Below are positions 5,496 to 64,000 of a stretch of DNA of 64,000 bases, one piece after another. Below the pieces are notes generated by a model. That model was not told the origin of the DNA. It saw only the letters and a program-made list of their open reading frames with translations, and did not search any database. The DNA lies in IMG/VR virus record IMGVR_UViG_3300017764_000001; one strand, given 5' to 3'. Each line of letters begins with the position of its first letter. Position 1 is the stretch's first letter. The DNA is from a virus. Taxonomy: Duplodnaviria > Caudoviricetes. A program made the translations under genes and the position numbers.

Positions 5496-5575
5496 CATTA
5501 TTGTTTGTAGTAACTTTTATTACAGTACTAATTGCTGGAATGCAGTTAACATGGCCAGGTAGATACCGAGGATAA
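5492..5575 (+). CDS. 27-aa single-TM peptide
   Basis: ATGA overlap with the zwf stop; MTLLFVVTFITVLIAGMQLTWPGRYRG*. Confidence 0.5.
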   Translation: MTLLFVVTFITVLIAGMQLTWPGRYRG

Positions 5576-5576
5576 C

Positions 5577-43791: not shown

Positions 43792-46700
43792 ATGGCTAAT
43801 ACTAGAGAACTTGCACAGTTTGCATCATTTGTAGATTTCACTGGAACTTCAATTGGATTTTCTACACAATTTAATGTTAGTGGTGTATCCACATTTACTA
43901 ATACTGTAATTTTTGACAGCACGGGTTCTATCCAGATTCCAAAAGGAAACACCAGCCAAAGACTGCCTGGTGTTTTGGGTCAGATTAGATATAATACTCA
44001 GTTATCTACATTTGAGGGTTATGGTGCAGGCAATGCATGGGGTTCTCTTGGTGGTGTCAAGGACGTAGATGCAGATACTCTCATCAGAGCAGAATCTTCT
44101 GCAGGAGCAGATGAAGATAAGTTAGAATTTATAACTAATGATGGAGTTAGAGTTGCAATAGATTCGACAGGACAGGTGGGTATTGGTTCGACAATACCAA
44201 CTGTAACCTTAGATGTTGTTGGTAATGGAAAGGTATCAGGAGTTCTTACTGCAACCACGTTCTCTGGTTCTGGTGCATCATTAACATCTATTCCAAATTC
44301 ATCTCTTTCCAATTCTAGTATTGCTATTGGTGGCATTACATTCAACTTAGGAGATACCGATGCCACACCGGCATTTGATTTACAAGATGCGACAGGATAT
44401 CCATTCACAAGTCTCACAGGAATTACGACAGATATTGCCGGAGATACCACACCTACACTTGGTGGTAACTTAGATGCTAATTCTAAGGATATAACAGGAG
44501 TCAATAATTTAAATGTATCTGGTGTTTCTACATTCCAAAGTCATATTCACCTTGGAAATGATGATGAATTAAGACTTGGTGCGGCAACTGGTGGAGATAT
44601 GGTTATTGTTCATGATGGAGATCATGGCACAATTGACAATAATGATGGTAATTTAAATATTAAGAGTGAAGGTAATATTGCACTTAATCCCAACAATACA
44701 AATGATGGTTTAAACGTTATAAATCAAGGTGCGGTAGAACTTTTTCACAATAACGCCAAGAGATTAGAAACCACTACTACCGGTGTTAAAATTTTAAATG
44801 GGACAACCGCAACGATTGCCGGTCCTGATGAAATTATTATTGATCCAGCAACTGTTGGTGATAACACCGGTACTGTAAGAATTAAAGGTGACTTATTCGT
44901 TGATGGAACCACGACACAAATAAACTCCACGGCACTTGAGATCTCAGATTTTATAGTTGGCATTGCCACCACCGCAACGACAGATGCTTTGGCAGATGGT
45001 GCCGGTATTCAGATTGGACCGAGTGGAAATACTTTCTTATATGATAATACTAATGAAGCTTTCACATCTACTGAAAATTTAAATGTCGCATCTGGACATA
45101 CCTACAAAATTGCCGGAACTGATGTTCTTTCTGCCACCACTCTTGGTTCTGCTGTAGTTAATTCTTCACTGACAAGTGTAGGAACACTTTCTGCACTAAC
45201 AGTATCTGGTGATGTGAGCATTGCTGATAAAATAGTTCATACTGGGGATACTGATACTGCTATTCGTTTTCCTGCTGCTGATACATTTTCGGTAGATACT
45301 GCTGGTAATGAAGCATTTCGTGTAGATTCTGATGGTAATTTAACTTTAGGAACCGCTGATGAAGCAACTAATTCTAAACTAACAGTTAGAGCAGCAAGTC
45401 CACATTTAAGTTTGTATGCAACACCGGGAAGCAATACTTCTCAGTTGAATTTGGGGGATACAGACGATCATGACATCGGAAATATTAGTTATGATCATAG
45501 TGATAACTCTATGCGTTTTACGACAAATACAACAGAAAAACTTCGTATAACTTCTGCTGGTTCGGTTGGTATCGGAACTAATAATCCAACTTCTATATTT
45601 GATGTTGAAACTGGAACTGGATCTGGTATTAACTTTGGTAGTGATGGTGCTAATGCCCCTACCCTTAATTTCATGGCTGGATCTGCCAGACTTGAATCTG
45701 CAGCTCAAATATTAGTTGGCGAAAATAGTGGTGGTGGTGATTTTATTATTAAAACAAAAAATAGTAGTGGATCATTAACATCACGAGTCACCGTTAATAA
45801 TGCTGGTAAATTAACAGTAACACCAGCAGATACAACTTCTAGTTATGAAACTACTGACGGTGGTATTGATATTGCTCAGACTATAAGTTCAACAGGAACA
45901 AGTTCTAGTCAAAGTATTGGAATTCAATTTAGTTTAACTAAATCGGGTCAAACTGGAGCTATAGCAGAAATTGGTGCAATAAGAGAAGGTAGTGGATTAA
46001 GTGGATTAGTTTTTAGGACAAGAGATAATTCCACAGGTAGAAATGAAAGACTTCGTATAACTTCTGATGGTAAAGTTGGAATCGGAACTGATAATCCAAA
46101 TGGAACTTTAACTGTATATGGTGCATCATCCTCTAGTTTTAGAATATCAAAGTCCGGTGTTCTTGCCTATGATCATACATTTAATGGCACTTCATATACA
46201 ATTGCAAATAATAACGGTAGTGCAGGAATTCCAATTATTATTGGGACCAAAACTGCTGGTGAAGAATCAGTTCGTATAACTTCTGATGGTAAAGTTGGAA
46301 TCGGAACTGATAATCCAGCAACGACTCTGGATGTCCAAGGTGATATGGCAGTTGCATATAGTGCAACTCATGCACTTCGTTTTTATAATCAACCAAAAAG
46401 TAACTGGTCATCTATAAGTAATACTGATACAGGTAGTAATGCGAATTTATCACTTAAATCCTCACAAGGTGAGGCAATGTTTATTACTTATGATAGAAAG
46501 ATCGGTATAGGAACTGATAATCCATCAAGAATACTACACATAAATTCTGGAGCAACAGATACTGCTATGCTCATAGAGGGCACAGATGGTGATGTTCAAA
46601 TTAATTTAAAGGATGTAGATTCCAGTGATGGCATATCAATAGGTTGTGATCAAGATGATTTTTATGTTCGCACAGGATTAACTACAGAAAGACTTCGTAT

Positions 46701-47533: not shown

Positions 47534-49021
47534 ATGGCAAAGTTAAGAGTTGGATTTGGTTCTGATTTTAATATTACAGGACAAAAGGTAGGTCTTGGAA
47601 CCGCAAATCCAACTGCTCTTTTAGAAGTTGCCGAAACTGCCAAGGCAGATTTTAATATTACCGGTGTCACAACACTGACATCTTATGGTGGTTTTGTAGC
47701 ACAGAATCAAAATATTACAGAACCAACAACGATCAAGAGAACGATAAGTAAATCAGGAACTCTTGATAGTGTAAATGAAAGAGAAACTGGATTTACAGAA
47801 CTTGGTGGTGTTCATCACGGTGATGATCAATATTTCAATACACTTTCAGAAGATCTTGTCGTAGAAGACGGAAAGATTTTCAGTATTCATAATACTGAAA
47901 TGGTTGGTTCTACAACTATTGGTGAACAGGATCCACACACTCATGCATCACATGTCTCTGCAGGATCACTGGAACAAGTATCAGTCACCGGACACTTTTC
48001 TGTTCCTTGTGGTGGAATTAATGAAAGGCAAGAAACACTAATCGAAGGAACCGTAAGATTCAATGATGATTTGAATACACTTGAGTTCTTCAATGGAAAT
48101 GAATGGAGACAATTTACTTATAATCAAGGACAAAGTGGTCGTGCCGTTTTCTCTGGTGGTGAATCTGGTGGATCGAATACACAGATACAGGCAATTGATT
48201 ATTATAATATACACACTACTGGAAATGCACTTAATTTTGGTAATGCAACTATCACCGAATCAAGAAAAGCAGGGTGTGCTTCCGCAACTAGAGGATTATC
48301 TGGTGGATCTGATGATACAAGTAACGATAGTACTATTGATTATGTAACCATTGCATCAACAGGAGATGCAATTGATTTTGGAGATTTGTATAATGGTAGA
48401 GGCACATCTGCATCAATGTCATCATCGACTCGTGGACTTTGGGCAGCAGGAAGATCTCCAACTAATCAAGATACAATAGATTATGTAGAAATAGCAACTC
48501 TTGGAAATGCACTAGATTTTGGTGATACAACAGTTGCACGACAATGGTTGGCAGGTTGCTCTAGTTCAACAAGAGGAATTATTGCCGGAGGAGAATCTCC
48601 ATCCTTTGCGTCTCCAACTAGAACTTCAAGAATAGAATATATAACCATGGCATCAAAAGGTGATGCAATTTTATTTGGAGAGTTGACGGGTATTACTGGC
48701 AATCCTGGGGGTTGTTCTAATTCAACAAGAGGATTTTTTGGTGGTGGTGAGCCATCAGCACAGAGTAAGATAGATATGATTACAATTGCATCAACCGGAA
48801 ATGCCATTCGTTTTGGAGAACTAACTGTTGCCAGACTTACAGTAAATGGTGCTGGTAGTCAAACTCGTGGAACATTTTTAGGTGGACATTATAATTTGAA
48901 TGTAATTGATTACATCACAATGTCAACAGAGGGAGATGCAATAGATTTTGGAGACTTAACTATAGGTAGGTGGTCAGGTGCATCATTATCAGATTCTCAC
49001 GGTGGTTTAGGAGGTTTCTAA
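47534..49021 (+). CDS. Propeller-array protein 1 (intact fibre motif + 6-repeat propeller)
   Basis: MAKLRVGFGSDF; FSVPCGGINER...GTVRFNDDLNTLEFFNGNEW; repeats STRG..GG...IDY.TIAS.G.A.DFG; ends SDSHGGLGGF. Confidence 0.85.
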   Translation: MAKLRVGFGSDFNITGQKVGLGTANPTALLEVAETAKADFNITGVTTLTSYGGFVAQNQNITEPTTIKRTISKSGTLDSVNERETGFTELGGVHHGDDQYFNTLSEDLVVEDGKIFSIHNTEMVGSTTIGEQDPHTHASHVSAGSLEQVSVTGHFSVPCGGINERQETLIEGTVRFNDDLNTLEFFNGNEWRQFTYNQGQSGRAVFSGGESGGSNTQIQAIDYYNIHTTGNALNFGNATITESRKAGCASATRGLSGGSDDTSNDSTIDYVTIASTGDAIDFGDLYNGRGTSASMSSSTRGLWAAGRSPTNQDTIDYVEIATLGNALDFGDTTVARQWLAGCSSSTRGIIAGGESPSFASPTRTSRIEYITMASKGDAILFGELTGITGNPGGCSNSTRGFFGGGEPSAQSKIDMITIASTGNAIRFGELTVARLTVNGAGSQTRGTFLGGHYNLNVIDYITMSTEGDAIDFGDLTIGRWSGASLSDSHGGLGGF

Positions 49022-49022
49022 G

Positions 49023-51146
49023 ATGGCAAAAATAAGATTTGGTTACTCTGATGATTTCACCGCAAAGAATAGTGGTGTTGGTATTAATACCACCGATTCA
49101 CAGGAAAATTTAGATGTTGATGGTGTCGTAAAAGGTCAAGATCTAAAGGTCACCGGTATCTCATTACAAACTGGTTATGAAGGATTCCTGAGAGCAGATC
49201 ATCAGATTGCAGAGGATACATCTCTGAGTTTTGATCAAGGACCTGTTTCATCACTTTCTGGTGAGATTATTGTAGAAACTGGTAAAACTGTTACCGTCAA
49301 TGAGGTTGTCAAAGAGACTGCAGGAGTTGGTAATGGTTCTGGTGGTCAATGGAATGATCTGAACGGTAATTATGCTTTTAAGGCAAATGGTGATCCAACA
49401 TGGGATGGATCTGCATTTGTTTATGATGGCACTGGAGATTATCACAGTCTCAGTGGCGGAAATACAAGCACTTTTGAAGTAGGTTCTAGTAATTTTACAT
49501 TAGAACAATGGGTTTATATAACTGCAACATCTTCTATATGCAGTACATTTTTCTCTAAAGGAAATAATAACTCTGTTGGAACAGAATTTATGTCCCTACA
49601 GACTACGAATAATGGCACCACACCAGGATTTTTCTTTGGTTCTGGAAGTTCTCTTTTGGCAGGATCATCTGTAGGAACAGATGGGTGGCATCATTATGTG
49701 GTAACTCGTTCCGGTAATAATTTTACACTTTATGTTGATGGAACGTCAGTAGATACTGCTACTAGTAGTAGTTCTTTGGCATCTGGAATTACTGGTGGTG
49801 TTAATATTGGTGCTCAATCTTACAGTGTTTCTGCTGATGGTAGAAAATTAAATGGAAAAATTTCTATCACTCGTCTTTATGGTAGTAGAGTATTAACAGC
49901 AGCAGAAGTTACACTAAACTATAATGCCGGACATACTGCAACCACATCAGCAGTAGTAGCAACAGTAGACCTCAATGCGAACAATCCAAGTTCCTATCCT
50001 GGAACTCTCAGTGCTGTTGATACCACAGATACAACAATAGCAGGTGGAAGTCAGATTGGATCATTGAAAGTTTTCAATACTTTCACACCTCCAAGTGGTG
50101 ATACAAATCAGAGACCATCAAAACCAAAACCAGGTCAATTATATTATAACTATGACCTCAAGACCATTGAGTTTCATGATGGTTATGGTTGGAGACAAGT
50201 AGATTATACAACTACAAGTAGTCGTGCTGTATTTGCCGGTGGATATAATCCGGGACCATCATATGGTACAATATCAAATATGTCTTATGTAAATATTGCC
50301 TCAACTGGTAATGCATTAGATTTTGGTAGTTTGGTTGCTAATGCAAGAACTGATCACGGTGCTTTTTCAAGTTCGATTCGTGGTATATTCCATCAAAGTA
50401 TTGGAAGTCCGGGTACTGGAGAGAGTTTAGATTATGTTGCTCTGGCATCTGGAGGTCAAGCAGTTGATTTTGGTAATTTGAATACTGCCAGAACAAGATC
50501 TTCGGGATTATCGAGTTCTACTCGTGGACTTATTGCGGGTGGATATACACATCCTGCACGAATTTTCAAAATTGACTATGTAGAAATCGCTACGGTAGGA
50601 AATGCGTTAGAGTTTGGAGAATTAAGTAGTCATGGAATTCGTAATGCCCCTATCGCATCACCAACGAAAGGAGTTTTTGTTGGAGGCACTCCGGCATCTG
50701 CAACAAGAACAAACGAAATAACATTTGTAACAATAGCATCAAAAGGTAATTCTATTGATTTTGGAGGACGTGGTTTATTTTCTGGTTCATATAGTGCGGG
50801 TGGAGTATCTAATGGTGTTCGTGGCGTATATGCGGGAGGAGATACTGGTGGTGACGGTGGTGGTAAAGAAAAATCAATCGGATATTTAAATCTTGCGTCA
50901 ACAGGAAATGCACAATATTTTGGTGATCTTTCCATAGCAGGAAGTCATCATTGTGGAACTTCTAATCATATTCGTGGAATATTTAATTCTAGTGACCAAG
51001 TACCAAACACAGCAGTGTATACAAATGCCATTGAGTATATAACCATATCAACAGCAGGAAATTCTATAGATTTTGGTGATAACGTATTAAGTGCTGGCAG
51101 GAGAGCTTGTACATCAGACTCACACGGCGGACTAGGAGGTTTCTGA
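49023..51146 (+). CDS. Propeller-array protein 2 (LamG-like domain + intact motif + propeller)
   Basis: NFTLEQWVY...WHHYVVTRSG...LYVDG; PPSGDTNQRP...GQLYYN; ends SDSHGGLGGF. Confidence 0.85.
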   Translation: MAKIRFGYSDDFTAKNSGVGINTTDSQENLDVDGVVKGQDLKVTGISLQTGYEGFLRADHQIAEDTSLSFDQGPVSSLSGEIIVETGKTVTVNEVVKETAGVGNGSGGQWNDLNGNYAFKANGDPTWDGSAFVYDGTGDYHSLSGGNTSTFEVGSSNFTLEQWVYITATSSICSTFFSKGNNNSVGTEFMSLQTTNNGTTPGFFFGSGSSLLAGSSVGTDGWHHYVVTRSGNNFTLYVDGTSVDTATSSSSLASGITGGVNIGAQSYSVSADGRKLNGKISITRLYGSRVLTAAEVTLNYNAGHTATTSAVVATVDLNANNPSSYPGTLSAVDTTDTTIAGGSQIGSLKVFNTFTPPSGDTNQRPSKPKPGQLYYNYDLKTIEFHDGYGWRQVDYTTTSSRAVFAGGYNPGPSYGTISNMSYVNIASTGNALDFGSLVANARTDHGAFSSSIRGIFHQSIGSPGTGESLDYVALASGGQAVDFGNLNTARTRSSGLSSSTRGLIAGGYTHPARIFKIDYVEIATVGNALEFGELSSHGIRNAPIASPTKGVFVGGTPASATRTNEITFVTIASKGNSIDFGGRGLFSGSYSAGGVSNGVRGVYAGGDTGGDGGGKEKSIGYLNLASTGNAQYFGDLSIAGSHHCGTSNHIRGIFNSSDQVPNTAVYTNAIEYITISTAGNSIDFGDNVLSAGRRACTSDSHGGLGGF

Positions 51147-51177
51147 TGTCCGATAAATATAGGAAAGTAGTAGTATA

Positions 51178-52602
51178 ATGCCTAAAATAAGGATTGGTTT
51201 TTCAACTGATTTTAATTTAGTCAACGAACAGGTTGGTATCGGGACGACAAATCCTGACTCTAGGTTAAATGTGCCTGGACAAATTCTTGCCGACAATACT
51301 GCTGGTAGTGGAGGAGTATCAACATATAGAGAGTATCAAGGATTTCATCAGACACAGAGTAATGTCAGTCATAAGGTTACGATTGATGCAACCACTGCCG
51401 GTAATCTAAATTCTTTGTCTGGTGAACTAAGAATTGATGGAGATGTCACGATTGCACCAGATACATCAGTAACCAGTGGAAAGATAGATAGTCTAACTGC
51501 AACTGATAAGTTTGCTGTCCCTCTTCGTGATACAAATAGTAGAGATAATACACCGGAGGCAGGAACAACTAGATTTAATCAAGACTACGGAACACTTGAG
51601 TTCTTTGATGGTGCAAATTGGAAGACTGTAAATAAAACATCTAGAAGTGGTCGAGCCGTATTCTTTGGTGGATATATTGGTCCTTCTGGTACAACTCAAA
51701 CTAAGAGTATGGATTTGATTAATATTCCATCATTAGGTAATTCTGTATATTTTGGTGATTTGGGGTCTGTCAGAAATGACACTCAAGGTTGTTCTGATGG
51801 AACTCGTGGTCTATGTGCTGGTGGATATTCCAGTGCCGTAAATCAAAGAATTACTGATACGGAATATATTACATTAGCATCTGCCGGTAATGCAATTGAT
51901 TTTGGCAATTTGGATGAACCAAGAAATGGATTTGCCGGATGTTCTTCGTCAACTCGTGGATTATTTGCTGGTGGTGTAGACAATGCTGCTAACTCTCCAA
52001 CAGTATTGCAAATTGATTATTTTCAAATTTCAACTCTTGGAACGGCATTGGATTTTGGTGATTCGGCAACTTCAAGAACAGTGAGTGGTGGATTGCCTTC
52101 ATCTACTCGTGCAGTATGGGGTTCAGGAAGCAATAGAACAGGTGGAACAGTAACTGCAGTATCAATGATGGACTATTCTACATTTGCATCGAAGGGAAAT
52201 GCTGTTGAATTTGATAATGAAATTTTACCAAGACAAACTGGAAATGGATGTAGTAGTGGAACAAGAGGAGTGTTTGCCGGTGGTTATGGATCTCCTGCTC
52301 TTTATTCATCACCGGCAAATAAAGAAATGGCAAGAAAGATGTCTTATGTAACAATTGCATCAACAGGCAATGCAATTGAGTTTGGAGAACTATCTGCAAT
52401 TAAAACTTATGTTGGATCAAATTCAACAAGTACCAGAGGTATTTGGACGGGTGGATCTAATTACCCAACGCACTATGATGATATTGAATATGTTCAATTT
52501 TCATCATTAGGTAATGCTTTAGACTTTGGAAATCTTCATTCAACCAAAGGTTACATGACTGGATCAGCATCAGATTCTCACGGTGGTTTAGGAGGTTTCT
52601 AA
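51178..52602 (+). CDS. Propeller-array protein 3 (intact motif + propeller)
   Basis: MPKIRIGFSTDF; FAVPLRDTNSR...GTTRFNQDYGTLEFFDG; ends SDSHGGLGGF. Confidence 0.85.
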   Translation: MPKIRIGFSTDFNLVNEQVGIGTTNPDSRLNVPGQILADNTAGSGGVSTYREYQGFHQTQSNVSHKVTIDATTAGNLNSLSGELRIDGDVTIAPDTSVTSGKIDSLTATDKFAVPLRDTNSRDNTPEAGTTRFNQDYGTLEFFDGANWKTVNKTSRSGRAVFFGGYIGPSGTTQTKSMDLINIPSLGNSVYFGDLGSVRNDTQGCSDGTRGLCAGGYSSAVNQRITDTEYITLASAGNAIDFGNLDEPRNGFAGCSSSTRGLFAGGVDNAANSPTVLQIDYFQISTLGTALDFGDSATSRTVSGGLPSSTRAVWGSGSNRTGGTVTAVSMMDYSTFASKGNAVEFDNEILPRQTGNGCSSGTRGVFAGGYGSPALYSSPANKEMARKMSYVTIASTGNAIEFGELSAIKTYVGSNSTSTRGIWTGGSNYPTHYDDIEYVQFSSLGNALDFGNLHSTKGYMTGSASDSHGGLGGF

Positions 52603-52603
52603 G

Positions 52604-55600
52604 ATGGCAAATTTAAGAGTAGATAAGATTACAAGCACAGAAACCTTTGAAAGAACTGGTTCTGTTCAGTTTGGTGGTAGTGGAGATTATTTAAGTCTTG
52701 CAAGTAGTAGTGATTTTGGTTTTGGCACTGGAGATTTTACTATTGAAGCTTGGGTGTGTCCCAGACAAGTATCCAATAACCCATATATTTACGAACCCAG
52801 AACTAGTGCAGCTCAAAATGTAGCTGCTCCGATTATTTACATTTATAATAATAATATTATCTATGCATCAAACATGACGAATTTGATTACAGGTAAAGAA
52901 ATCAATGACAATACGTGGTTTCATGTTGCTGTTGTTCGTCATCAAAGTGTCACCACGTTATATGCTGATGGTGTAAATCAAGGATCAATAAATGATACTA
53001 GAGATTATATTGATTCCCCCGTATTGATAGGTATGAGAAAAAATACTACTGGTCAATCCTTGAATGGTTTTATTAGTAATCTCCGTGTGATTAAAGGTAA
53101 GGCAGTATATACAGCAGACTTCAAAGTTCCAATGAAAGAACTTGAAGCAACTCCTGAGACTGTATTATTATGTTGCCAATCAAAAACTTCTGCAGCTGCC
53201 GCAAAAGTATCACCAAACATCAGTGGAGTTAATGACGGAACAATATGGTCTGATGCTCTTGACGTAACCAATGGTGGTCGATTGAGACATGAAGATTATG
53301 GAGATTCATCAACACACAGCCCATCATTAATTTTTGATGGTGACACTTCAACTGATGCAGAAGGTCCCAACGGAACGAATAATAATATCATATATGATTT
53401 TCAAACTTTACTTGGAAAGAGTATTCCGGTCAGTAGTTCAATTAAAATTGTGATTGGTGGTAGTGATGGTAGAACACTCAAAGTAAATGGAAGTACTATT
53501 GGAACCAATTTGGGATCCACAGTACAGACAATTACTAGTCAATCTGCACTGAATAAGATTGAAGTTGTTGCTGAATCATCTTCAAGAAGTGGTCGATTGG
53601 CAGACATCAAAGTCGATGATGTTTCATTATTACTTCCTGTTCTTCCATTTGGTCGTAACATTAATGCATCAGAACTGTCACCAGGTCTTCTGACTGATAA
53701 AGTTATTGATGGTGGTAGCAGTGCCATCAAAGGATCTGTTGAGTTTGATGGTGACTCTGATGGTTTAGTTCTTTCCAAGTCCACAGATTTTCAATTTGGA
53801 ACAGGTGATTTTACGATTGAGGGGTGGTTCAATGTTTCAGATACTGGAGCAATCAGGACACTTTTTGATAGTAGAAATACCGACACTGTAACCCATGGAC
53901 TTTTTGTTGGAATTAATAGTAATGATAATCTCTATACCTATGGATTTCCTGGTGGCACCGGAGTTGTAAATTATGGAATTCCCAAACACGGAGAATGGCA
54001 TCACTTTGCAGTTGTAAGAAATGGAAGTGATGGGTATGTATTTCTCAATGGAGTAAAAGTTTCTGGAAGTATAGACACAAGTTCTACTAACTATATACAT
54101 CAAGGAGCAACAGTTGGTCAACCTTCAACTGTTTTTGCCGAAACTTTATATCGTTACAAAGGATTTATTTCAAACCTACGTATAGTCAAAGGCACTGCAC
54201 TCTATACACACGACTTCATTCCACCAACCAGAGAACTCAAAAAAGTTCCAGGCACTGTTCTTTTATGTTGCCAAGACCCTGATAATCCACTCACGGAAGC
54301 AACTGGAAAAACCATAACTCCTTATGGTGATCTCGGTGATGGTAGTCTCGGAGGAGAATTAGTCACAAATAATAGTGTATGGACTCTTGCTAAAGGTGGT
54401 AGTGGAGCTACCGATTGGACTGTTAGTAATAATGGCAGATCATTGGCAGGAACAACTGTTAGTGGTGGTTACATAAGAGCAACTTACACTTTATCAAAAG
54501 GTGACTATCTGGTTTCTCTTCGTTGGACTGGTGGTAATTTTGCAGTTCAGGATTCTACTGGATACATAGTCGCAACAGATGGAACTGATACCGAATTTTC
54601 TTCTTCTGAGGATGGTGCATATAGTTTCTACATGACTGCTACTACATCAGTTGTAATCACTGGTACATCTTGGAGCACTGCATATACGGTTGATGATATT
54701 AGTATCAAAAGAATTTATAGAAATAATGGTGCATCAAACTTCACACCACAAGTCGGTGATAATAGGAAAGTAACCTTTGATGGTGTCACCAAAATAAACT
54801 CAGATGCTTATTTCTATCTCCCAACTGGTGATACTATAACCAGAGATAGTCGCAGTGGTCGTGGAATAAGTCTAGGTGGTGCTCCAAGTCCATCAACAGC
54901 TAGAAGTGAGGTAATTGATTATATAACAATTTCCTCCATGGGAAATTCACAGGATTTTGGAAATTTAACTGTGGCAAGATCTTTAAATGGTGGGTGTTCA
55001 TCATCAACAAGAGGAATTTGTGCTGGTGGATATAATGAACCAGTATCAACACCTGGATATCTAGACACAATTGATTATATAACAATTGCAGCAACAGGAA
55101 ATGCAGTTGATTTTGGTAATTTAACTGTGGCTAGAAACGGATTATCAGGAACATCTAATTCAACCCGTGGTGTTTTTGCTGGAGGGTCAAAACCTCCCTC
55201 TGATACTAAAGAAAATGTTATTGACTACCTGACGATTGCATCATTAGGTAATGCAATTAATTTTGGAGATTTAAGTCAGGAGAAAAGAAATACGGGATGC
55301 ACTGGATCTGCAATAAGAGCTATCTGGGCAGGTGGTCAAGTGGGACCAACAATTACAACTGTGATGGATTATGTCACTATTGCATCCACTGGACATGCTG
55401 CTGATTTTGGTGATTTAACTGCCAATAGACGGCATTGTATAGGATCTAGTTCAAGCACTCGTGGTATATTTGCAGGAGGAACAACCAATCCAACATTAAT
55501 AGATATTATTGAATATATAACCATGTCATCTACAGGAAATTCTAATGACTTTGGTAATTTGACGGATGCTAGATCTGAATTTGGAGGACCGTCAAATAAA

Positions 55601-55765
55601 ATTCGTGCTGTCTTCATGGGTGGTTGGGATTCACCTACCTATGACAATAGAATTGATTATATAACAATTGCAACAACTGGCAATGCATCAGATTTTGGTA
55701 ATTTGGGTGGTGGAGTTCGTGGTGCAATGGCAGGAATTTCAGACTCTCATGGTGGTCTTGGATAA
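52604..55765 (+). CDS. Propeller-array protein 4 (two LamG-like domains, half motif, propeller)
   Basis: MANLRVDKI; FGTGDFTIEAWV and FGTGDFTIEGWF; YFYLPTGDTITR joined directly to the propeller. Confidence 0.85.
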   Translation: MANLRVDKITSTETFERTGSVQFGGSGDYLSLASSSDFGFGTGDFTIEAWVCPRQVSNNPYIYEPRTSAAQNVAAPIIYIYNNNIIYASNMTNLITGKEINDNTWFHVAVVRHQSVTTLYADGVNQGSINDTRDYIDSPVLIGMRKNTTGQSLNGFISNLRVIKGKAVYTADFKVPMKELEATPETVLLCCQSKTSAAAAKVSPNISGVNDGTIWSDALDVTNGGRLRHEDYGDSSTHSPSLIFDGDTSTDAEGPNGTNNNIIYDFQTLLGKSIPVSSSIKIVIGGSDGRTLKVNGSTIGTNLGSTVQTITSQSALNKIEVVAESSSRSGRLADIKVDDVSLLLPVLPFGRNINASELSPGLLTDKVIDGGSSAIKGSVEFDGDSDGLVLSKSTDFQFGTGDFTIEGWFNVSDTGAIRTLFDSRNTDTVTHGLFVGINSNDNLYTYGFPGGTGVVNYGIPKHGEWHHFAVVRNGSDGYVFLNGVKVSGSIDTSSTNYIHQGATVGQPSTVFAETLYRYKGFISNLRIVKGTALYTHDFIPPTRELKKVPGTVLLCCQDPDNPLTEATGKTITPYGDLGDGSLGGELVTNNSVWTLAKGGSGATDWTVSNNGRSLAGTTVSGGYIRATYTLSKGDYLVSLRWTGGNFAVQDSTGYIVATDGTDTEFSSSEDGAYSFYMTATTSVVITGTSWSTAYTVDDISIKRIYRNNGASNFTPQVGDNRKVTFDGVTKINSDAYFYLPTGDTITRDSRSGRGISLGGAPSPSTARSEVIDYITISSMGNSQDFGNLTVARSLNGGCSSSTRGICAGGYNEPVSTPGYLDTIDYITIAATGNAVDFGNLTVARNGLSGTSNSTRGVFAGGSKPPSDTKENVIDYLTIASLGNAINFGDLSQEKRNTGCTGSAIRAIWAGGQVGPTITTVMDYVTIASTGHAADFGDLTANRRHCIGSSSSTRGIFAGGTTNPTLIDIIEYITMSSTGNSNDFGNLTDARSEFGGPSNKIRAVFMGGWDSPTYDNRIDYITIATTGNASDFGNLGGGVRGAMAGISDSHGGLG

Positions 55766-55787
55766 ATAATGAAAGAGGTAGTATAAT

Positions 55788-56849
55788 ATGTCAGAGATTC
55801 CAGCAGGTGCAATGAGATTTAACTCCGACTCGCAGAAGTTGGAGTATTGGAATGGCTCGGCATGGTTTCAGGTTCATACTGCAACACCAAATCTTGCAAC
55901 GGCAGGTGATAGAGAACCTGGTGCTCGTGGATTGTTTGCCGGTGGATATCAACCCGGTGCATATCAAAATGATATTGATTATATAAACATTGCATCAACG
56001 GGCAACACACAAGACTTTGGCACTTTAAACAATGCAACTACTGCCGGTGGTGGAGTAGGATCAAGAACTCGTGCATTATTTGCTGGTGGTTATATTGGAA
56101 CAGGTCCTAATGCTCTTGCTCAAATAGACACTGTAGTTTTTGCCAGCACTGGAAGTGCTTCAGACTTTGGTGATATGGCTTTGAATCATTTTAGAAGAGG
56201 ATCTGCAGGAAATGCAACTCGTGGATTATTTGCTGGTGGTGGAAATCCAAATACAACTGACCCACAGATAGATTATGTAACTATTGCAACAACAGGAACT
56301 GCAAATGATTATGGTGATTTAACTCAAACAAGATCCAGATTTGGTGGAGGAGGATCTTCAACTAGGAGTATATTTGCAGGAGGTTTTACCGGACCTAGCC
56401 CAACAAATGTTTATCAAGACATTATTGATTTTGTAAATACACCAACTCTTGGAAATGCACAAGACTTTGGTGATTTAACAAGAGGAAAATCTTGGACAGC
56501 AGTATGTTCAAATCCAACTAGACTGTTGATAGGTGGTGGTGCTATAGCACCCGATGGAAATACGGCAGTCAGTGAAATGGAATATATCACAATTTCAACA
56601 ACTGGTAATGCAGCAATGTTTGGGGACTTGAATCAAGTTGTCGATACTGGGGCATATGCAGGTTCCGGTTTGGCATCCTCGACTAGAGGAGTATTTAATA
56701 CAGGAATATTTAAAAATCCAGGTACAACTTATGATAATACACTTTATTATGTTGAAATTTCAACAACAGGAAAAGCAAGTGACTTTGGTGATCTAGATGG
56801 AAAGAGATATGGAGTTCAAACTTGCTCTAACGGTCACGGAGGGTTATAA
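55788..56849 (+). CDS. Propeller-array protein 5 (small; second half motif + propeller)
   Basis: MSEIPAGAMRFNSDSQKLEYWNGSAW; ends SNGHGGL. Confidence 0.85.
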   Translation: MSEIPAGAMRFNSDSQKLEYWNGSAWFQVHTATPNLATAGDREPGARGLFAGGYQPGAYQNDIDYINIASTGNTQDFGTLNNATTAGGGVGSRTRALFAGGYIGTGPNALAQIDTVVFASTGSASDFGDMALNHFRRGSAGNATRGLFAGGGNPNTTDPQIDYVTIATTGTANDYGDLTQTRSRFGGGGSSTRSIFAGGFTGPSPTNVYQDIIDFVNTPTLGNAQDFGDLTRGKSWTAVCSNPTRLLIGGGAIAPDGNTAVSEMEYITISTTGNAAMFGDLNQVVDTGAYAGSGLASSTRGVFNTGIFKNPGTTYDNTLYYVEISTTGKASDFGDLDGKRYGVQTCSNGHGGL

Positions 56850-56852
56850 GTC

Positions 56853-59267
56853 ATGGCAAAATTAAGAGTAGATAAGATTGCAGCACCAATAGTCAAGGAT
56901 GAATTTACTGGGTCAGTTCATTTTGATGGGACTGGGGATTATTTGAGTCTATCAAGTAATACTGATTTTGCAATGGGGACGGGTGATTTCACTGCAGAGT
57001 GCTTCATAAACACCACCAGTTTTAGTAACGCTGAGGGTGCATATAGTGAAAGAGTTTTTGACTCTAACACTGGGCAATTGGGAATTTATGTAACATCAGA
57101 TGGAAGTGGAACAATTGGTGCTTTGGTGGCAGGTACTGATCATAGAGGTACTAGTTCTCCAACATTGAGTGGATGGACGCACGTTGCTTTGACGAGAAGT
57201 GGATCGACTGTTAGAATATTTTTGAATGGAGTTTTAGATAGTTCTTTTACTAACAGTGGAAGTGTTGCATCCTCTGGAGACTTTTTGATAGGTGCAAGAG
57301 CGAGTGGACAGGGTGGATTCTTGGGGTACATCTCCAACTTTCGCATTTGTAAAGGACATGCAGTTTATACTGGAAATTTTACAGTACCAACCAGAGAACT
57401 AGAAGTTCATCTTGGTGCAAAAGGAGTCGTATTCCCTGCAGCAGATAACAGAACTGTTCTCTTAGCCTGCCAATCTTCTACTGATGCAACAGCAGAAGCA
57501 ACAGGAAGACACACAATCACTGTTAATGGTGATCCAACAGCAGCAGATGCAAACCCAGGATTATTCCGTAGAACTAATATATCTTCAACAACCACCGAGA
57601 ACACAGGGGCAGTATATTTTGATGGTAGTGGTGATTATTTGAGCCTTGCAACTAGCACTGATTTTTCTTTCTCTCATGATTTTACAGTTGAAACGTGGGC
57701 ATATCCAACTGATATTTCCTCCAAATATAATGCTATTTTTTCATTAAATGTAAGTGGGGAATGGAACTCGCAAGGCAAGGGTTTTGTATTATCAATTGGA
57801 AATTTACACTATGGCACAGGTTATAATACTGATTATACTACTGGTATTATTCCAATAAACACCTGGACACATCTTGCAGTAACAAGATTAAGTGGTGCCA
57901 TTAAAATTTTTGTTAATGGTGTTTTAGACCAAACAATAAATGACGGCAATTCGGATGATACATTTGCAAATGGAACAGGTAATACACCAGCTATTGGATT
58001 GTTTGATCAACAAGGTGGTACGCCGAGATTTTATTTTACTGGGTACATCTCTAACTTTCGTGTCTGTAAAGGACATGCAGTTTATACATCACAATTCATA
58101 CCACCAACCAGAGAACTAGAAGTCACTCCCGAAACTGTTTTCCTTGGGTTGTATGATGGAGAGAATATTTTTGCAGATAAGACTGAAAGACATATCATTG
58201 CAGCATATGGTGATCGCACAAGTTCTCCAACACCCACAGTAACTGATAGTCCTATTGGTATTACAACAAACTATCCACCAGTCACAAGAAATGTTGATCC
58301 TACTGCTGGCCCAATATTCCAAGGTGGAGCAGGATTTATTTCACAGAACTGGTTGACACTACCAAAGGGAACAACATTACAAAGATCTAGAGGTCGTGGA
58401 CTGTTTGGTGGAGGATATACAACAAGTTATACAAATGTGATAGAGTATATTGAAATTCATACTTTAGGAAATGGTCAAGACTTTGGAGATTTGTCAATTG
58501 GAAAAACCTTTGTTTCTGCTAATTCATCATCAACTCGATGTGTTTTTTCTGGAGGATATGCTCCTTCGGCAAGTAGATCAGAAATTGAATATGTAAACAT
58601 ATCAACATCTGGAAATGTACAGAATTTTGCTACTGCAGTATCAACTCAGCACTCAAGGGCAGCATGTGGTAATAATACACGGGGAATTATTGCATCTGGA
58701 TCATTATCTGATGCGATAGAATACATTACTTTTTCTACTCTTGGACAATCAAATGTTTTTGGAACATATACAATAGGCCAATATAGAGATGCTTCAGGAT
58801 GCTCTTCTCCAACAAGGGGTATTTTTGCCGGGGGATTTACTCCAGCAAACACAAATTCAATACAGTACGTTACTATTTCAACTATCGGAAACACACAAGA
58901 TTTTGGTGATTTATCAAGTGCAAGATATGGTACTGGAGCTACATCATCTGAAACTCGTGGTGTATTTTTTGGAGGAACTGCATTTCCGAGTGCAACTGGA
59001 TCTAATGTGATTGAATATATAACTATCTCTACACTTGGAAACACACAAGATTTTGGTGATTTATCTAGATCGACTTATAGATCACCATGCACTTCAAATG
59101 GAACTAGAGCTGTCATTTATTCTTCTAGTCCTACACCAAATTCTAATGCGATTGAATATGTAAATATTGCATCTCTAGGTAATGCTGCAGATTTTGGAGA
59201 TTCTTTAATATCAGCAAGAGAGTATTCTGATTCTGCAAGTTCTGATTCCCATGGTGGCATCTCATAA
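56853..59267 (+). CDS. Propeller-array protein 6 (two LamG-like domains, half motif, propeller)
   Basis: MAKLRVDKI; MGTGDFTAECFI and HDFTVETWAY; WLTLPKGTTLQR joined to the propeller. Confidence 0.85.
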   Translation: MAKLRVDKIAAPIVKDEFTGSVHFDGTGDYLSLSSNTDFAMGTGDFTAECFINTTSFSNAEGAYSERVFDSNTGQLGIYVTSDGSGTIGALVAGTDHRGTSSPTLSGWTHVALTRSGSTVRIFLNGVLDSSFTNSGSVASSGDFLIGARASGQGGFLGYISNFRICKGHAVYTGNFTVPTRELEVHLGAKGVVFPAADNRTVLLACQSSTDATAEATGRHTITVNGDPTAADANPGLFRRTNISSTTTENTGAVYFDGSGDYLSLATSTDFSFSHDFTVETWAYPTDISSKYNAIFSLNVSGEWNSQGKGFVLSIGNLHYGTGYNTDYTTGIIPINTWTHLAVTRLSGAIKIFVNGVLDQTINDGNSDDTFANGTGNTPAIGLFDQQGGTPRFYFTGYISNFRVCKGHAVYTSQFIPPTRELEVTPETVFLGLYDGENIFADKTERHIIAAYGDRTSSPTPTVTDSPIGITTNYPPVTRNVDPTAGPIFQGGAGFISQNWLTLPKGTTLQRSRGRGLFGGGYTTSYTNVIEYIEIHTLGNGQDFGDLSIGKTFVSANSSSTRCVFSGGYAPSASRSEIEYVNISTSGNVQNFATAVSTQHSRAACGNNTRGIIASGSLSDAIEYITFSTLGQSNVFGTYTIGQYRDASGCSSPTRGIFAGGFTPANTNSIQYVTISTIGNTQDFGDLSSARYGTGATSSETRGVFFGGTAFPSATGSNVIEYITISTLGNTQDFGDLSRSTYRSPCTSNGTRAVIYSSSPTPNSNAIEYVNIASLGNAADFGDSLISAREYSDSASSDSHGGIS

Positions 59268-59288
59268 ATATGGTAGAGGTATAAAGAT

Positions 59289-60299
59289 ATGAGCAATCTT
59301 CCCCCATCAAGAATCCCAAGAGGTGCAATAAGATTTAATACTGATAGTAACAAACCAGAACTCTGGGATGGCTCACAGTGGGCAGAGTTTCAGTTAAGCA
59401 CACCGAATCTTGGTAGGGCAGTTGATACTCAACCTGGTGCTCGTGGCATTTTTGCAGGAGGGTCTCCCACAACTGGAGGAGATACTATTGAATATGTAAA
59501 TATTTCATCAACGGGAGATGCAATTGATTTTGGTAATTTACTTGCCACCAAAAAATATGTGGCAGGATGTTCATCATCAACTCGTGGAATAAGTGCTGGT
59601 GGTGAACCAGGAACAATTGATGTAATTGAATTTGTTACGATTGCATCAACAGGAGATGCAGTTGATTTTGGTAATTTAAATAATGGTACTACATATATCA
59701 GTGGATGTAGCAGCGAAACAAGAGGAATATTTGCTGGAGGAAAACAACCGGGATTCACAAACCAGATTCAATATATAACAATCGCATCAACAGGTAATGC
59801 AAATGATTTTGGTGATTTGACTCAAGCGAGGGGCAATATTGGTGCTGTTTCTAGTCCTATGAGAGGTGTATTCCAGGGTGGATACACACCAACTAGACAG
59901 AATACAATTGATTTTATTACTATTGCAACAATTGGAAATGCACAGGACTTTGGTGATTTGACTGGATCAAATGGCAATAATGGTGGAAATCAATCGGGGA
60001 GCACCACCAGAGGTTTCTTTGTGGGTGGTCAACCAGAAACAAATCAAATACAGTATATTACAATTCCAACAGGAGGAAATTCTGTTTTCTTTGGAGAGAG
60101 GACTATCTCCAAAGAATATTCTAATTGCACTTCTAACAAAATTAGACTTGTTGCTGGTGGAGGACAAACACCGGGTACTACAAATACAATTGAGTATTTT
60201 ATAATATCAACAGAAGGTAATGCAGTAGATTTCGGAGATTTAAATACTGATCAACATCTTTCTGGATCTTGTTTTTCTAATGCTCACGGAGGTCTATAA
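59289..60299 (+). CDS. Propeller-array protein 7 (small; second half motif + propeller)
   Basis: IPRGAIRFNTDSNKPELWDGSQW; six repeats; ends SNAHGGL. Confidence 0.85.
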   Translation: MSNLPPSRIPRGAIRFNTDSNKPELWDGSQWAEFQLSTPNLGRAVDTQPGARGIFAGGSPTTGGDTIEYVNISSTGDAIDFGNLLATKKYVAGCSSSTRGISAGGEPGTIDVIEFVTIASTGDAVDFGNLNNGTTYISGCSSETRGIFAGGKQPGFTNQIQYITIASTGNANDFGDLTQARGNIGAVSSPMRGVFQGGYTPTRQNTIDFITIATIGNAQDFGDLTGSNGNNGGNQSGSTTRGFFVGGQPETNQIQYITIPTGGNSVFFGERTISKEYSNCTSNKIRLVAGGGQTPGTTNTIEYFIISTEGNAVDFGDLNTDQHLSGSCFSNAHGGL

Positions 60300-62488
60300 T
60301 GGGAATATTACGCACCGATAAAGTTTCAGGGTTAGAGAAGGAGAAAAGACAGAATCCAAACTTAGTCGTTAATGGTGACTTTAGTGATTCTTCAATTGCC
60401 GGTTGGACTGCATATAATGCCGTTGCAAGTTATGATAGTGGTGCCGGTGGAAGAATTAAAGTTGATGATAGTGCATCAGCAGGTGGATGGAGTAATGCTG
60501 CCTATGTAATCAATACAGAACCCGGAGCATCATATAGATTTGAAGTTAGAGCTTCGGCAACTGATAGTGATACTCAATTTGTTGGATATTATCAAGGAAC
60601 TTATGATACTGCCGGGACTGCACCAACGGTTTATTCATCAGAAATCACCGTTAATCCCTCTGTTCATTATTTTGATCTTATAGCAACGGGTAGCACTGTT
60701 ACCCTATTGTTGATTGCCAATGGTTCTGGAGTTGTATATTTTGATGATATTTCATTCAGAAAGACTGATGGAAACTCAATCGGAGGATCTGTTCATTTTG
60801 ATGGTAATGATCATTTATCTATTGGTAATTCAGGAGATTTTAATTTTCTTCACAACGGTGCAACTGATTGGACTGCAGAATTCTGGGCAAAAATGCCCAG
60901 TGTAACTCGGGGGCAAGTTTTCGGCACCGGAGCAAGTAGTGCTCAAACAGGGTTTAGTCTCACTCTTATGTCTGCTGCTGATAATCAAAGTGATGAACCA
61001 GGTGTTTTTGCGATGTTTGGTAGAGGGGCAGCAGGAAACTATAGATATTGGGGAGTAAGTAATGGTCTTTCAATAAATACATGGCATCATATTGCGGCAG
61101 TATTTAAGTCCAGTGATAAGACATTAGCATTGTATATCGATGGAAGAGAAGTAGATAACGATAGTGGAACGGAAAATGGAACTTTTGGTAGTGGAAATTA
61201 TTCAACCTCTAATAGTTCATATGCATTTATAGTTGGAAAAAATACACATTCTAGTACATTTTTCAAGGGTTACATATCTAATTTGAGGGTTGTTGCTGGA
61301 CGTAGACTTTACACATCAGATTTTACACCACCAGTTCATGCACTAGAACCAATTAATGGAACTAGAATTCTTTGTTGTAATAATCCGGATTCTGTTACTG
61401 CCGTGGATAGTGCTTTGATTGGAACTGCTCATATCAACACATCCTCCGGAAATCCACAAAATTCCACAAAAAATCCAGGTTTTACCAGAGACTTCACATA
61501 CGGCACAGAGTTTAGGGGTGTCACAACATTTGATACGCAAGGATATTTTGTTCCACCATCAGGTACGACAGAACAAAGAGGCAGAGGTCGTGGATTTTTT
61601 GCAGGGGGAGGAACTACCCCTAATTACACAAATGCAATTGATTTTATTACAATTTCATCTAGTGGAAATGCACAAGATTTTGGTGATTTGACACAAGAAA
61701 AACAATCTCTTGGTGGGACAGCAAATTCTACAAGAGGTATATTTGCAAGTGGATATAATACTCCAGTATTTCCTGCTACTGGTAATAATACTGATAGAAT
61801 AGAATATATAACAACTGCAACAACAGGAAACGCACTAGATTTTGGTAATTTAGATTCCGCAATAAGATATGCTTCTTGTGCCGCTAATTCAACAAGAGGT
61901 TTAATTGCTGGAGGATACTATCCATCTTATATTGATAGAATTGAATATATTACTATCGCATCTCTAGGAGATGCACAAACTTTTGGCACATTGACTGCAT
62001 CTGCCACCGCAACTGATAAAGCAGGTTTATCTTCTCCAACTAGAGCACTATTTGCTGGGGGAGAAAATGGTAGTGGTAATATGACTCTCACAGATTATGT
62101 GACTATTGCATCAACTGGCAATGCTCAAGATTTTGGTGACTTGACAGCAGCACGTAGAAGAGCAGCATCGGCATCAAGTGGAACTAGAGGATTAGTTGCC
62201 AATGGTTACAATGGATCTGCATATGTAAATACCATCGATTATGTGACCATTGCATCAACAGGAAATGCACAAGACTTTGGTGATACATCACAATCTAGAA
62301 GTTCTTCAAAAGGACAAGTTTCCTCAACAATCAGAGGAGTTTTTGGTAGTGGAGCAACGCCAAATCTTACAAATACCATCGATTATGTGACCATTGCATC
62401 AACTGGTAATGCATCAGATTTTGGTGATACAAATGGATCTCTTTTTGAGCAAGCAGGTTGTTCAGATTCCCATGGTGGTCTCTCATAA
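60299..62488 (+). CDS. Propeller-array protein 8 (CBM-like + LamG-like, half motif, propeller)
   Basis: MGILRTDKV; NLVVNGDFS...YFDDISF; DWTAEFW...WHHIAAV; YFVPPSGTTEQR joined to the propeller. Confidence 0.85.
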   Translation: MGILRTDKVSGLEKEKRQNPNLVVNGDFSDSSIAGWTAYNAVASYDSGAGGRIKVDDSASAGGWSNAAYVINTEPGASYRFEVRASATDSDTQFVGYYQGTYDTAGTAPTVYSSEITVNPSVHYFDLIATGSTVTLLLIANGSGVVYFDDISFRKTDGNSIGGSVHFDGNDHLSIGNSGDFNFLHNGATDWTAEFWAKMPSVTRGQVFGTGASSAQTGFSLTLMSAADNQSDEPGVFAMFGRGAAGNYRYWGVSNGLSINTWHHIAAVFKSSDKTLALYIDGREVDNDSGTENGTFGSGNYSTSNSSYAFIVGKNTHSSTFFKGYISNLRVVAGRRLYTSDFTPPVHALEPINGTRILCCNNPDSVTAVDSALIGTAHINTSSGNPQNSTKNPGFTRDFTYGTEFRGVTTFDTQGYFVPPSGTTEQRGRGRGFFAGGGTTPNYTNAIDFITISSSGNAQDFGDLTQEKQSLGGTANSTRGIFASGYNTPVFPATGNNTDRIEYITTATTGNALDFGNLDSAIRYASCAANSTRGLIAGGYYPSYIDRIEYITIASLGDAQTFGTLTASATATDKAGLSSPTRALFAGGENGSGNMTLTDYVTIASTGNAQDFGDLTAARRRAASASSGTRGLVANGYNGSAYVNTIDYVTIASTGNAQDFGDTSQSRSSSKGQVSSTIRGVFGSGATPNLTNTIDYVTIASTGNASDFGDTNGSLFEQAGCSDSHGGLS

Positions 62489-62509
62489 ATATGGTAGAGG
62501 TATAAAGAT

Positions 62510-63535
62510 ATGAGTCTCCCCCCATCAGAAGTGCCACAAGGTGCAATCAGATTTAATACCGACTCCCAGAGGTTAGAGTTTTATGCTCAGGGGGAATGGT
62601 GGATTATGTCTACTGATACTCCTAATCTTGGAACGAGTGCTGACTCAACTCCTGGTGCTCGTGGATTATTTGGTGGTGGTCACGGACCTTCACCAACTAA
62701 CGAAGTTAACGAAATAGAATATATCAACATTGCATCAACAGGTAATTCGGTAGACTTTGGTGATCTTCAACAAACAAGACAGGCACTTAGTTCTCTTGGA
62801 TCATCTACAAGAGGATTTTGGGTAGGAGGAAGAGATGCGCCAGCTAATTTTGATATTATAGAGTTTGTAACTTTTAGTTCATTAGGAGATAATACAGATT
62901 TTGGTAATCTTTCTTCTGCAAAACAAGGACCTTTTGGACTTTCAAATGCTACTCGTGGAATATCTGGTGGTGGTAGTTTTACTAACACTGTTGATTATTT
63001 TACCATGGCATCAACAGGAACTGTAGCAACATTTGGTACTCTCCAACCAACTGGAAAAGGAACTTATCAATCAGCATGTATGACTCCTGTAAGGGGTGTT
63101 TATCAACAATCTTTGGGTGCAAACCCATATCCAGGAAATACATATTTGGGTGGTTGCATCATTGCATCACTAGGAGATTTTCAGGATTTTGGTGAGTTAT
63201 CACAACAAAGAGCAAATTCTGCTAGTCTCTCAAATGCTACTCGTGGAATATTTGCTGGTGGATATCAACCACTCACATCCTCAATTGAATATATGGAAAT
63301 TTCGTCCGGAGGAAAGGCATCAAAATTTGGTGATTTAAGTAATAACAGAAAAGAATTAAATGGAAATTGTACATCCCCAACTCGTGGAGTCATAGCTGGT
63401 GGATTAGCAGATTCACATTTTAATCTTATTGAGTATGTTAATATTCAAACACAGGGCGATGCAGTGGATTTTGGTGATTTGCTTAATCCAAGAATGTATA
63501 AGTCAGGAATATCTAATGCACACGGAGGGTTGTAA
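62510..63535 (+). CDS. Propeller-array protein 9 (small; second half motif + propeller)
   Basis: VPQGAIRFNTDSQRLEFYAQGEW; six repeats; ends SNAHGGL. Confidence 0.85.
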   Translation: MSLPPSEVPQGAIRFNTDSQRLEFYAQGEWWIMSTDTPNLGTSADSTPGARGLFGGGHGPSPTNEVNEIEYINIASTGNSVDFGDLQQTRQALSSLGSSTRGFWVGGRDAPANFDIIEFVTFSSLGDNTDFGNLSSAKQGPFGLSNATRGISGGGSFTNTVDYFTMASTGTVATFGTLQPTGKGTYQSACMTPVRGVYQQSLGANPYPGNTYLGGCIIASLGDFQDFGELSQQRANSASLSNATRGIFAGGYQPLTSSIEYMEISSGGKASKFGDLSNNRKELNGNCTSPTRGVIAGGLADSHFNLIEYVNIQTQGDAVDFGDLLNPRMYKSGISNAHGGL

Positions 63536-63594: not shown

Positions 63595-64000
63595 ATGACT
63601 GAGAAAAGTTCTGCTATTACTTCGGTAGATATTACACCAGGTTCAGAAATTTCTGTCACAACGCTTAAGAGTGATCTTGCACAGCTAGCAAGTGGTCCTC
63701 TGCCGCAGGAATACAAAGGAATGTTGACTCATATCGAGGAAACACTGCCTTCTACTAAAGCAGCATGTGACAACTTCTATAAGTCTCACTCACAGATGAT
63801 GACTGTGACTTTGGATATCACTGACCTGACACCTATTCGTAGTATTAAACATACTCTTGCCGCGATTGAAAGAACAAAGAGTGCCCTTGCAGAGGCACAA
63901 ATCAATCGTCGTAAGAATGAAATCAAAATTAAGAAAAAGCAACGTGAGATCGATGCCGCCGAAGATGATCTTGATCGTGAAGAACTTGAGATCGAGATGA
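63595..64000 (+). CDS. Hypothetical coiled-coil protein (partial, runs off the window)
   Basis: CTAAATA at 63557; MTEKSSAITSVD...NFYKSHSQMMTVTLDITDLTPIRSIKHTLAAIE...; not in the track because it has no stop in the window. Confidence 0.75.
   Translation, partial: MTEKSSAITSVDITPGSEISVTTLKSDLAQLASGPLPQEYKGMLTHIEETLPSTKAACDNFYKSHSQMMTVTLDITDLTPIRSIKHTLAAIERTKSALAEAQINRRKNEIKIKKKQREIDAAEDDLDREELEIEM

Follow-up and report, generated by a model that had tools for sequence, protein, structure and literature searches.

Three adjacent gene pairs in the adhesin array of IMG/VR virus record IMGVR_UViG_3300017764_000001 carry the two halves of a single N-terminal module on separate proteins. The window analysed here is the whole stretch of 64,000 nucleotides (nt) from this record, the source of which is an uncultured marine T4-like cyanophage (cyanomyovirus). 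In each of the pairs, A4/A5, A6/A7 and A8/A9, a large protein keeps only the first half of the module (F) and runs from there into a propeller domain of Kelch fold, while the small protein encoded just downstream begins with only the second half (S) and ends in a propeller of its own. The break has the same position in all three pairs, the pairing is cognate and conserved in related loci, and in sister phages single genes unite the same two halves. We read each pair as two subunits of one branched, probably trimeric, cognate anchor-branch complex for host adhesion, a reading to which we give an even chance.

The split module

The module is described by a hidden Markov model (HMM) of 76 positions, covering the anchor, F and S, which was built from 26 single-chain metagenomic relatives. 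A1 to A3, the genes that precede the pairs, match both halves of this profile (positions 25-73, 19-73 and 23-75). A4, A6 and A8 match the F side only (18-49, 11-44 and 16-44), and A5, A7 and A9 match the S side only, at their extreme N-termini (45-74, 43-74 and 43-71). The first-pass annotation of this DNA had described a fibre motif that is intact in the tail-fibre genes and in A1-A3 and divided between neighbouring genes three times over. Profile and regular expression both bear out this distribution, and the profile places the break near position 44/45 alike in each pair. As more than 80 further gene pairs, all distinct, show the same break, its complementary nature is far beyond chance.

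All genes concerned lie on the plus strand. A4 (52604..55765; 1053 amino acids, aa) starts with the anchor strand MANLRVDKI, followed by two LamG/ConA-like domains (Pfam Laminin_G_3, 7e-25), F at aa 723-754 (54770..54865; ..VTFDGVTKINSDAYFYLPTGDTITR; 13.6 bits) and a six-bladed Kelch-fold propeller from aa 758. Its partner A5 (55788..56849; 353 aa) has S at aa 3-32 (55794-55883; 32.6 bits), a linker and a propeller from aa 50. A6 (56853..59267; 804 aa) is composed of the anchor MAKLRVDKI, two LamG domains, F at aa 480-513 (58290-58391) and a propeller from aa 518, and A7 (59289..60299; 336 aa) of S at aa 6-37 (59304-59399) and a propeller from aa 55. In A8 (60299..62488; 729 aa), the anchor MGILRTDKV precedes a CBM_4_9 and a LamG domain, F at aa 401-429 (61499-61585; 25.2 bits) and a propeller from aa 436; A9 (62510..63535; 341 aa) has S at aa 5-33 (62522-62608; 27.3 bits) and a propeller from aa 54. 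Over the whole array, Pfam recognizes LamG/ConA-like domains in A2, A4, A6 and A8, with CBM_4_9 as an addition in A8.

The N-termini differ by class. An anchor of the LRxDK or RxGF type had been ascribed to all six large proteins and to none of the small ones, and the comparison of N-termini agrees: M..LR.DK is present in A4, A6 and A8, an M..IR.GF type in A1-A3, and neither in the small proteins. Only 0-6 residues separate F from the propeller in A4, A6 and A8, and an R-G-R-G-R-G junction is the mark of first-half-only proteins. At the N-terminus of small proteins, the sequence reads E-[IV]-P-x-G-A-[IM]-R-F-N-[TS]-D-S-x-K-L, with 62-98% conservation at each position, and several residues around S (E-4, I/V-3, P-2, A+1 at 95%, S+8 at 96% and K+10 at 90%) have no counterpart in full-motif proteins. 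These small-protein signatures (E-[IV]-P-x-G-A and D-S-x-K), together with R-G-R-G-R-G, could mark an interface in trans, or could simply reflect common descent.

The spacers within the pairs of this block measure 21-25 nt across the window and the related loci. The A4/A5 spacer (55766..55787; 22 nt) holds a late-promoter-like ATAAATA that overlaps the stop codon and a GAGG ribosome-binding site. The A6/A7 spacer (59268..59288; 21 nt) has two in-frame stops (TAA and TAG), and the A8/A9 spacer (62489..62509; 21 nt) is identical to it. In fact, a stretch of 34 nt from TCTCATAAAT to ATATGAG, which comprises stop codon, ATAAATA box, GAGG and start, is the same at both junctions (59234-59291 and 62455-62512); it looks like a portable junction cassette or the trace of a recent gene conversion. 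A near-identical GATTCCCATGGTGG precedes this stretch. The small open reading frames cannot be lengthened at their 5' side, as in-frame stops lie upstream. Read-through or frameshifting as a means of joining large and small gene was considered and rejected, because the frames differ at A4/A5, and A6/A7 and A8/A9, although in frame, are separated by the two stops.

Conservation of the two-gene unit

In related loci collected from IMG/VR and metagenomes (referred to by L numbers), every propeller gene was classed with two profiles. Upstream of 111 distinct classifiable small genes, a first-half-only propeller gene is found in 72 cases and a first-half-only gene that ends in LamG and has no propeller in 10. 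In another 19, the neighbour is a large propeller gene in which F scores below the classifier threshold, and the ones inspected are first-half-only. The upstream gene has the full motif in 10 cases, which represent one orphan lineage, the first small gene of a second block. The order of half-motif genes seen in the window is kept for 82 of the 111 small genes, with the 19 below threshold as probable additions, and not for 10. Seen from the other side, a small gene comes next at 74 of 105 junctions downstream of first-half-only propeller genes (73 with a recognized propeller). The remaining junctions lead to another first-half-only gene (10), to no classified gene within 200 nt or to a contig end (11), or to what are probably misclassified A2-like genes (9). 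Metagenomes of marine and of freshwater origin alike retain the large/small pairs.

The anchor and F also occur together (HMM 1-44) on a LamG-like domain without a propeller, with a small gene after it. Such genes, encoding 270-312 aa, are found at L007:10558-11442, at L066:975-1856, 2892-3722 and 3747-4562, and at L058:9795-10733; a small second-half-only propeller gene follows directly or after a second gene of this type. Because the anchor and F are thus joined to LamG alone, position 44/45 is a general module boundary, and anchor plus F is an autonomous N-terminal module.

Cognate partners and fused equivalents

Large and small genes can be sorted into types by their N-termini, and the types go together. 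Large genes of the MGILR type pair with small genes of the ..QKLEFYAQ type in 21 of 21 cases, those of the MANLRVDKIT type with ..SQKLEYW in 10 of 10, and the MAxLRVxKIA type precedes ..SNKPELW. Not a single non-cognate combination occurs among about 60 distinct typed pairs, and the earlier idea of mix-and-match partners is not supported. Whole pairs do shift order between phages: the window has 4/5, 6/7, 8/9, an order that differs from most relatives, and L001, L003 and L009 have 4/5, 8/9, 6/7.

L002 and L005 have, in place of the second and third pairs, single genes of 366-385 aa that encode an anchor, the full motif and one propeller, at A8/A9-like and A6/A7-like positions (L002:6993-8150 and 8154-9254; L005:6417-7550 and 7554-8678). 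In L002:6993 (385 aa), aa 18-46 correspond to A8 402-430 with 76% identity and aa 52-95 to A9 11-54 with 68%, and A8 1-12 is matched at 67%. In L002:8154 (366 aa), aa 14-41 correspond to A6 484-511 (57%) and aa 49-89 to A7 12-58 (64%). The fused halves thus find their best matches in the cognate A8 and A9, or A6 and A7; therefore, a pair equals a fused gene with an extra propeller, in addition to lectin domains, and a junction placed exactly between F and S. Rather than being a plain split, the arrangement amounts to the insertion of an additional propeller, and both products hold a complete six-bladed propeller.

A tree of the propeller domains from L002, L005, L007 and the window clusters them by genome and not by gene position or motif class, a sign that the paralogues evolve in concert or recombine often. 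The tree is for this reason uninformative about the orthology of fused and split genes, and the N-terminal modules were compared instead. Synteny, cognate types, joint movement and fused genes support the part of the first-pass annotation that treats a large and a small gene as belonging together, and each pair may be considered a functional and evolutionary unit.

Part of these data would also be accounted for if the proteins were independent adhesins and the pairs a frozen by-product of gene origin, which we regard as less likely. A cassette made up of propeller, stop, late promoter and ribosome-binding site, and start would then have been copied into the middle of full-motif genes by recombination between paralogues, and large and small proteins would not bind each other. 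The small proteins would trimerise by means of their own prism and attach to a common site on baseplate or fibre, or to any exposed helix end. The identical 34-nt junction fits the spread of such a cassette by gene conversion, the homogenisation of propellers within a genome speaks for rampant recombination, and the R-G-R-G-R-G and GA..DS.K signatures are consistent with a single origin of all half-motif genes. The orphan lineage of small genes, the unequal gene counts in some phages and the prediction that S folds alone point in the same direction. However, this explanation offers no route by which an anchor-less protein would reach the virion. It leaves unexplained why non-cognate combinations are never seen although the conserved junction DNA should favour the recombination that creates them, why pairs are retained in marine as well as freshwater metagenomes, and why fused forms unite exactly the cognate halves.

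The propeller domain

All nine array proteins end in a domain of about 290 aa with six repeats and the C-terminus S-x-x-HGGL. AlphaFold2 models it as a six-bladed propeller in A7 (mean predicted local distance difference test score, pLDDT, 79) and in one relative (pLDDT 86). The best Foldseek matches are KLHL12, Keap1 and a P. falciparum Kelch protein, with E-values of 1e-15 to 1e-20 and template modelling (TM) scores of 0.84-0.90 when normalised by target, and no Pfam Kelch family is detected at E <= 0.1 in the nine proteins. The domain is therefore like the Kelch propellers of Keap1, KLHL12 and the designed SAKe in fold, but shares just 10-16% identity with them and has a repeat signature of its own, IDY.TI.S.GNA.DFGDL....R....S..TRG.F.GG, in addition to the conserved end. 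It belongs to no Pfam family, only to PHROGs of 'unknown function', and is represented by more than 8000 sequence clusters in metagenomes (E<=0.001).

The C-termini of A1-A9 read S-[DN]-[SGA]-H-G-G-[LI] plus 0-3 residues. Judged by the repeat register, this end probably supplies the missing first strand of blade 1 and closes the propeller. A role for the module halves in closing the propeller was rejected, since six complete blades appear in the models or profiles of all nine proteins.

It could be imagined that the small proteins are not parts of the virion, but soluble late proteins acting as lectin-like decoys, assembly helpers or modifiers of the host surface. This is very improbable. Their lack of an anchor and their own late-promoter-like element and ribosome-binding site would be compatible with such a role, and proteomic data on them were not found in the literature. 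On the other hand, they share the propeller and the S-x-x-HGGL end with their anchored paralogues, the module at their N-terminus is elsewhere found only inside fibre or anchor regions, and their genes sit within the tail-fibre gene block.

Structural interpretation of the two halves

The giant fibre gene TF2 (43792-47499), upstream of the array, contains an intact F+S module (aa 31-85; 43882..44046, plus strand) that overlaps a match to the anchor domain of CBA120 TSP4. The match is weak but recognisable: TF2 aa 30-104 align with TSP4-N aa 20-92 (7RFV/7REJ/7RFO), with VRYNPDSDEFEGYYENGGWLSLGGG in the matching part, at E 0.012-0.061, and the motif profile reaches TSP4 aa 53-75 at E 0.85 only. 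Residues 7-42 of TSP4-N form an intertwined triple beta-helix that is required for trimerisation, which is lost on removal of the first 12-16 residues; each chain then goes on to form an antiparallel sheet of three strands, and together the sheets of the trimer build a coaxial beta-prism II (PMC8825819). From this weak homology we infer that anchor plus F would be a triple beta-helix that ends in F as the final rung, and S a sheet of a beta-prism II. In the N-terminal region of TF2 (43792-44400), aa 107-157 resemble trimeric Bdellovibrio fibre proteins (PDB 8OJN, E 2.4e-6).

The three strands of S are modelled by AlphaFold2 both in a fused protein (54-57, 62-67 and 70-73; pLDDT about 80) and in A7, where F is absent (14-17, 22-26 and 31-33; pLDDT 77-81). 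A low-confidence linker lies between S and the propeller. In the monomer model of the fused protein, the N-terminal 30 aa have a pLDDT of about 50, which is expected for an obligate oligomer without being proof of one. S resembles strands B-D of the consensus Kelch blade, and the second half of the module may descend from a fragment of a propeller blade. The S motif RFNTDS..LE.W.G..W (for example at 59304-59399) matches the consensus blade of the designed Kelch protein SAKe6BE-L1 with a summed E of 3e-14 over six repeats. The whole motif is also present at the C-terminus of a solved phage protein, Gp49 (9D83).

In a beta-prism II, the strands lie at right angles to the axis, as do the rungs of a triple beta-helix, and therefore a junction between helix and prism would continue the sheet faces in trans. 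In the branched complex that we favour, the large protein would keep the part that anchors it to the virion and trimerises it, namely the N-terminal strand and F as an intertwined triple beta-helix, with the lectin-like LamG and CBM domains inserted in the helix and the helix running directly into its own Kelch-fold propeller. Lacking an anchor or any other visible means of attachment, the small protein would contribute the prism sheet S, a flexible linker and a second propeller. As F would be part of a triple beta-helix and S a separate sheet, docking would be of trimer on trimer (3+3) and not that of a 1:1 heterodimer. The prism of the small trimer would dock on the helix end of the cognate large trimer and restore the helix/prism junction in trans, at the position of the prism in fused relatives; the outcome would be a 3+3 complex with six propellers. 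What sequences and models show is the complementary break, the conserved pairing of cognate genes, the fused equivalents and the folds of propeller and S sheet; the trimeric state, the assignment to helix and prism, the docking and the location on the virion are inferred. More specifically, the trimeric anchor domain would be built in trans, with the helix from the large and the prism from the small protein, and a portable 'propeller + junction' cassette, inserted in the middle of that domain, would add a second ring of receptor-binding propellers (3+3); this version we hold to be tentative, with somewhat less than an even chance.

The annotation had proposed docking by strand complementation. 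TSP4 homology and the prediction that S folds alone both argue against an incomplete sheet, and in its literal form, a 1:1 heterodimer with interchangeable partners in which the large protein adds its single F strand to the sheet of the small one and so completes it, the idea is improbable. It has in its favour the complementary break itself, a two-residue beta bridge in F (aa 37-38) beside the three S strands in the AlphaFold2 monomer of the fused protein, and the likeness of S to Kelch blade strands B-D, next to which a fourth strand would have its place. Yet the relatives of the motif are modules of trimeric fibres with F as part of a triple beta-helix, S is predicted with equal confidence with or without F, no non-cognate pairs are seen, and F is present as well on proteins that end in LamG.

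Several points weigh against the branched complex too. Small genes without a half-motif partner, which the annotation had taken to speak against complementation if common, do exist, at about 9% and within one lineage (9-10 distinct genes), behind a full-motif gene. In some phages (L007/L005 type), small genes outnumber first-half-only genes by 4 to 3. The orphan lineage and the unequal counts imply that a dedicated partner is not obligatory. Tight linkage and common descent alone could account for synteny and cognate types. When the N-termini of the propeller proteins themselves are compared as a profile with the PDB, TSP4 is not among the matches. S is predicted to be folded without F, with a confidence equal to that in the fused protein, and therefore nothing forces complementation. 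The tether of 0-6 residues between F and the propeller of the large proteins may leave little room on the helix end. A prediction of the complex counts neither for nor against it: for N-terminal segments of 47 aa and 40 aa, in three copies each, from a minimal orthologous pair (L005:4341-5375 / 5401-6414), the score is 0.34, compared to 0.32 for the control.

Layout and context of the adhesin array

The nine co-oriented genes A1-A9 (47534-63535) come after the giant fibre genes TF1 and TF2. TF1 (36404-43756, plus strand) has an F+S module at aa 1790-1845, and a 779-aa protein upstream of this giant fibre (34048-36387) has one at aa 93-150 (29.6 bits). A1-A3 (47534..52602, plus strand), used as comparators, consist of a fibre-like N-terminus, the intact module (aa 148-196 in A1, 338-395 in A2 and 103-155 in A3) and a propeller. 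The plan of three full-motif genes followed by three large/small pairs is that of the related loci as well. Related contigs reveal a second block of nine genes that lies beyond the window, with three anchor-plus-full-motif genes followed by S, F, S, F, F, S. The gap between the blocks is about 3.1-3.3 kb (for example L001:9039-12210) and holds non-propeller genes, the first of which is the 3'-open reading frame at the end of the window (63595-63999; PHROG 1409, unknown function).

The auxiliary-gene region of the window shares about 81% identity with Synechococcus phages Bellamy and S-SM2, and the adhesin array has no counterpart in these two phages. In isolated phage genomes, no DNA or protein match to the array is found except for weak ones in Synechococcus phage S-SKS1, every one of which is annotated as 'hypothetical protein'. 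Among the parts of the array, only the LamG portions are widespread in isolated phages.

Known systems and meaning of the split

An anchored receptor-binding protein (RBP) combined with an adjacent anchor-less one is an established phage architecture, known from G7C and KP32-type phages and from CBA120 (PMC6872550, PMC8825819). In E. coli phage G7C (gp66/gp63.1) and in Klebsiella phages of the KP32 type, the first RBP is anchored and the downstream RBP is anchor-less with a conserved N-terminal element, as here; this element probably docks on the first RBP, and the result is a larger number of receptor-binding domains per tail, as proposed here (PMC6872550). Docking in those phages takes place on a T4 gp10-like branching domain, whereas the docking element proposed here is the second half of an anchor domain; no gp10-like branching domain is detected in A4, A6 and A8, for which Pfam finds just Laminin_G_3 and CBM_4_9. 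Their binding domains are depolymerase beta-helices instead of Kelch-fold propellers, and the halves found here are contiguous in sister phages. The CBA120 TSP4 anchor (7REJ/7RFO/7RFV) is a triple beta-helix followed by a three-stranded sheet, as proposed for the module here, and serves trimerisation and baseplate anchoring (PMC8825819). In TSP4, however, this domain is a single chain that continues into gp10-like XD domains, and the likeness is seen for the fibre protein TF2 and not for the propeller proteins. Gp45 of S. aureus phage phi11 is a trimeric beta-propeller RBP for host recognition, as proposed here; it is a different propeller, encoded by a single gene, with no split anchor (PMC4901313).

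No description of this propeller family or of the split was found in the literature. The proposed docking by the second half of an anchor domain appears to be undescribed, as do sister phages with fused and with split forms of the module and Kelch-fold propellers in the role of binding domains. Tail adhesins, of which very little has been characterised, determine the host range of marine cyanophages, and this type of phage is rich in Kelch-fold propeller proteins, with nine in the window and nine more in the second block of related contigs. Should the pairs not assemble, a cassette mechanism driven by recombination that reshapes adhesin genes is still documented. If they do, receptor-binding domains would be multiplied by cutting an anchor domain in two, without a dedicated branching domain, and a simple rule would predict which anchor-less adhesin rides on which anchored one. 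The split module would then offer phage engineers a compact means of docking, and the fused and split sister phages would represent a natural before-and-after experiment.

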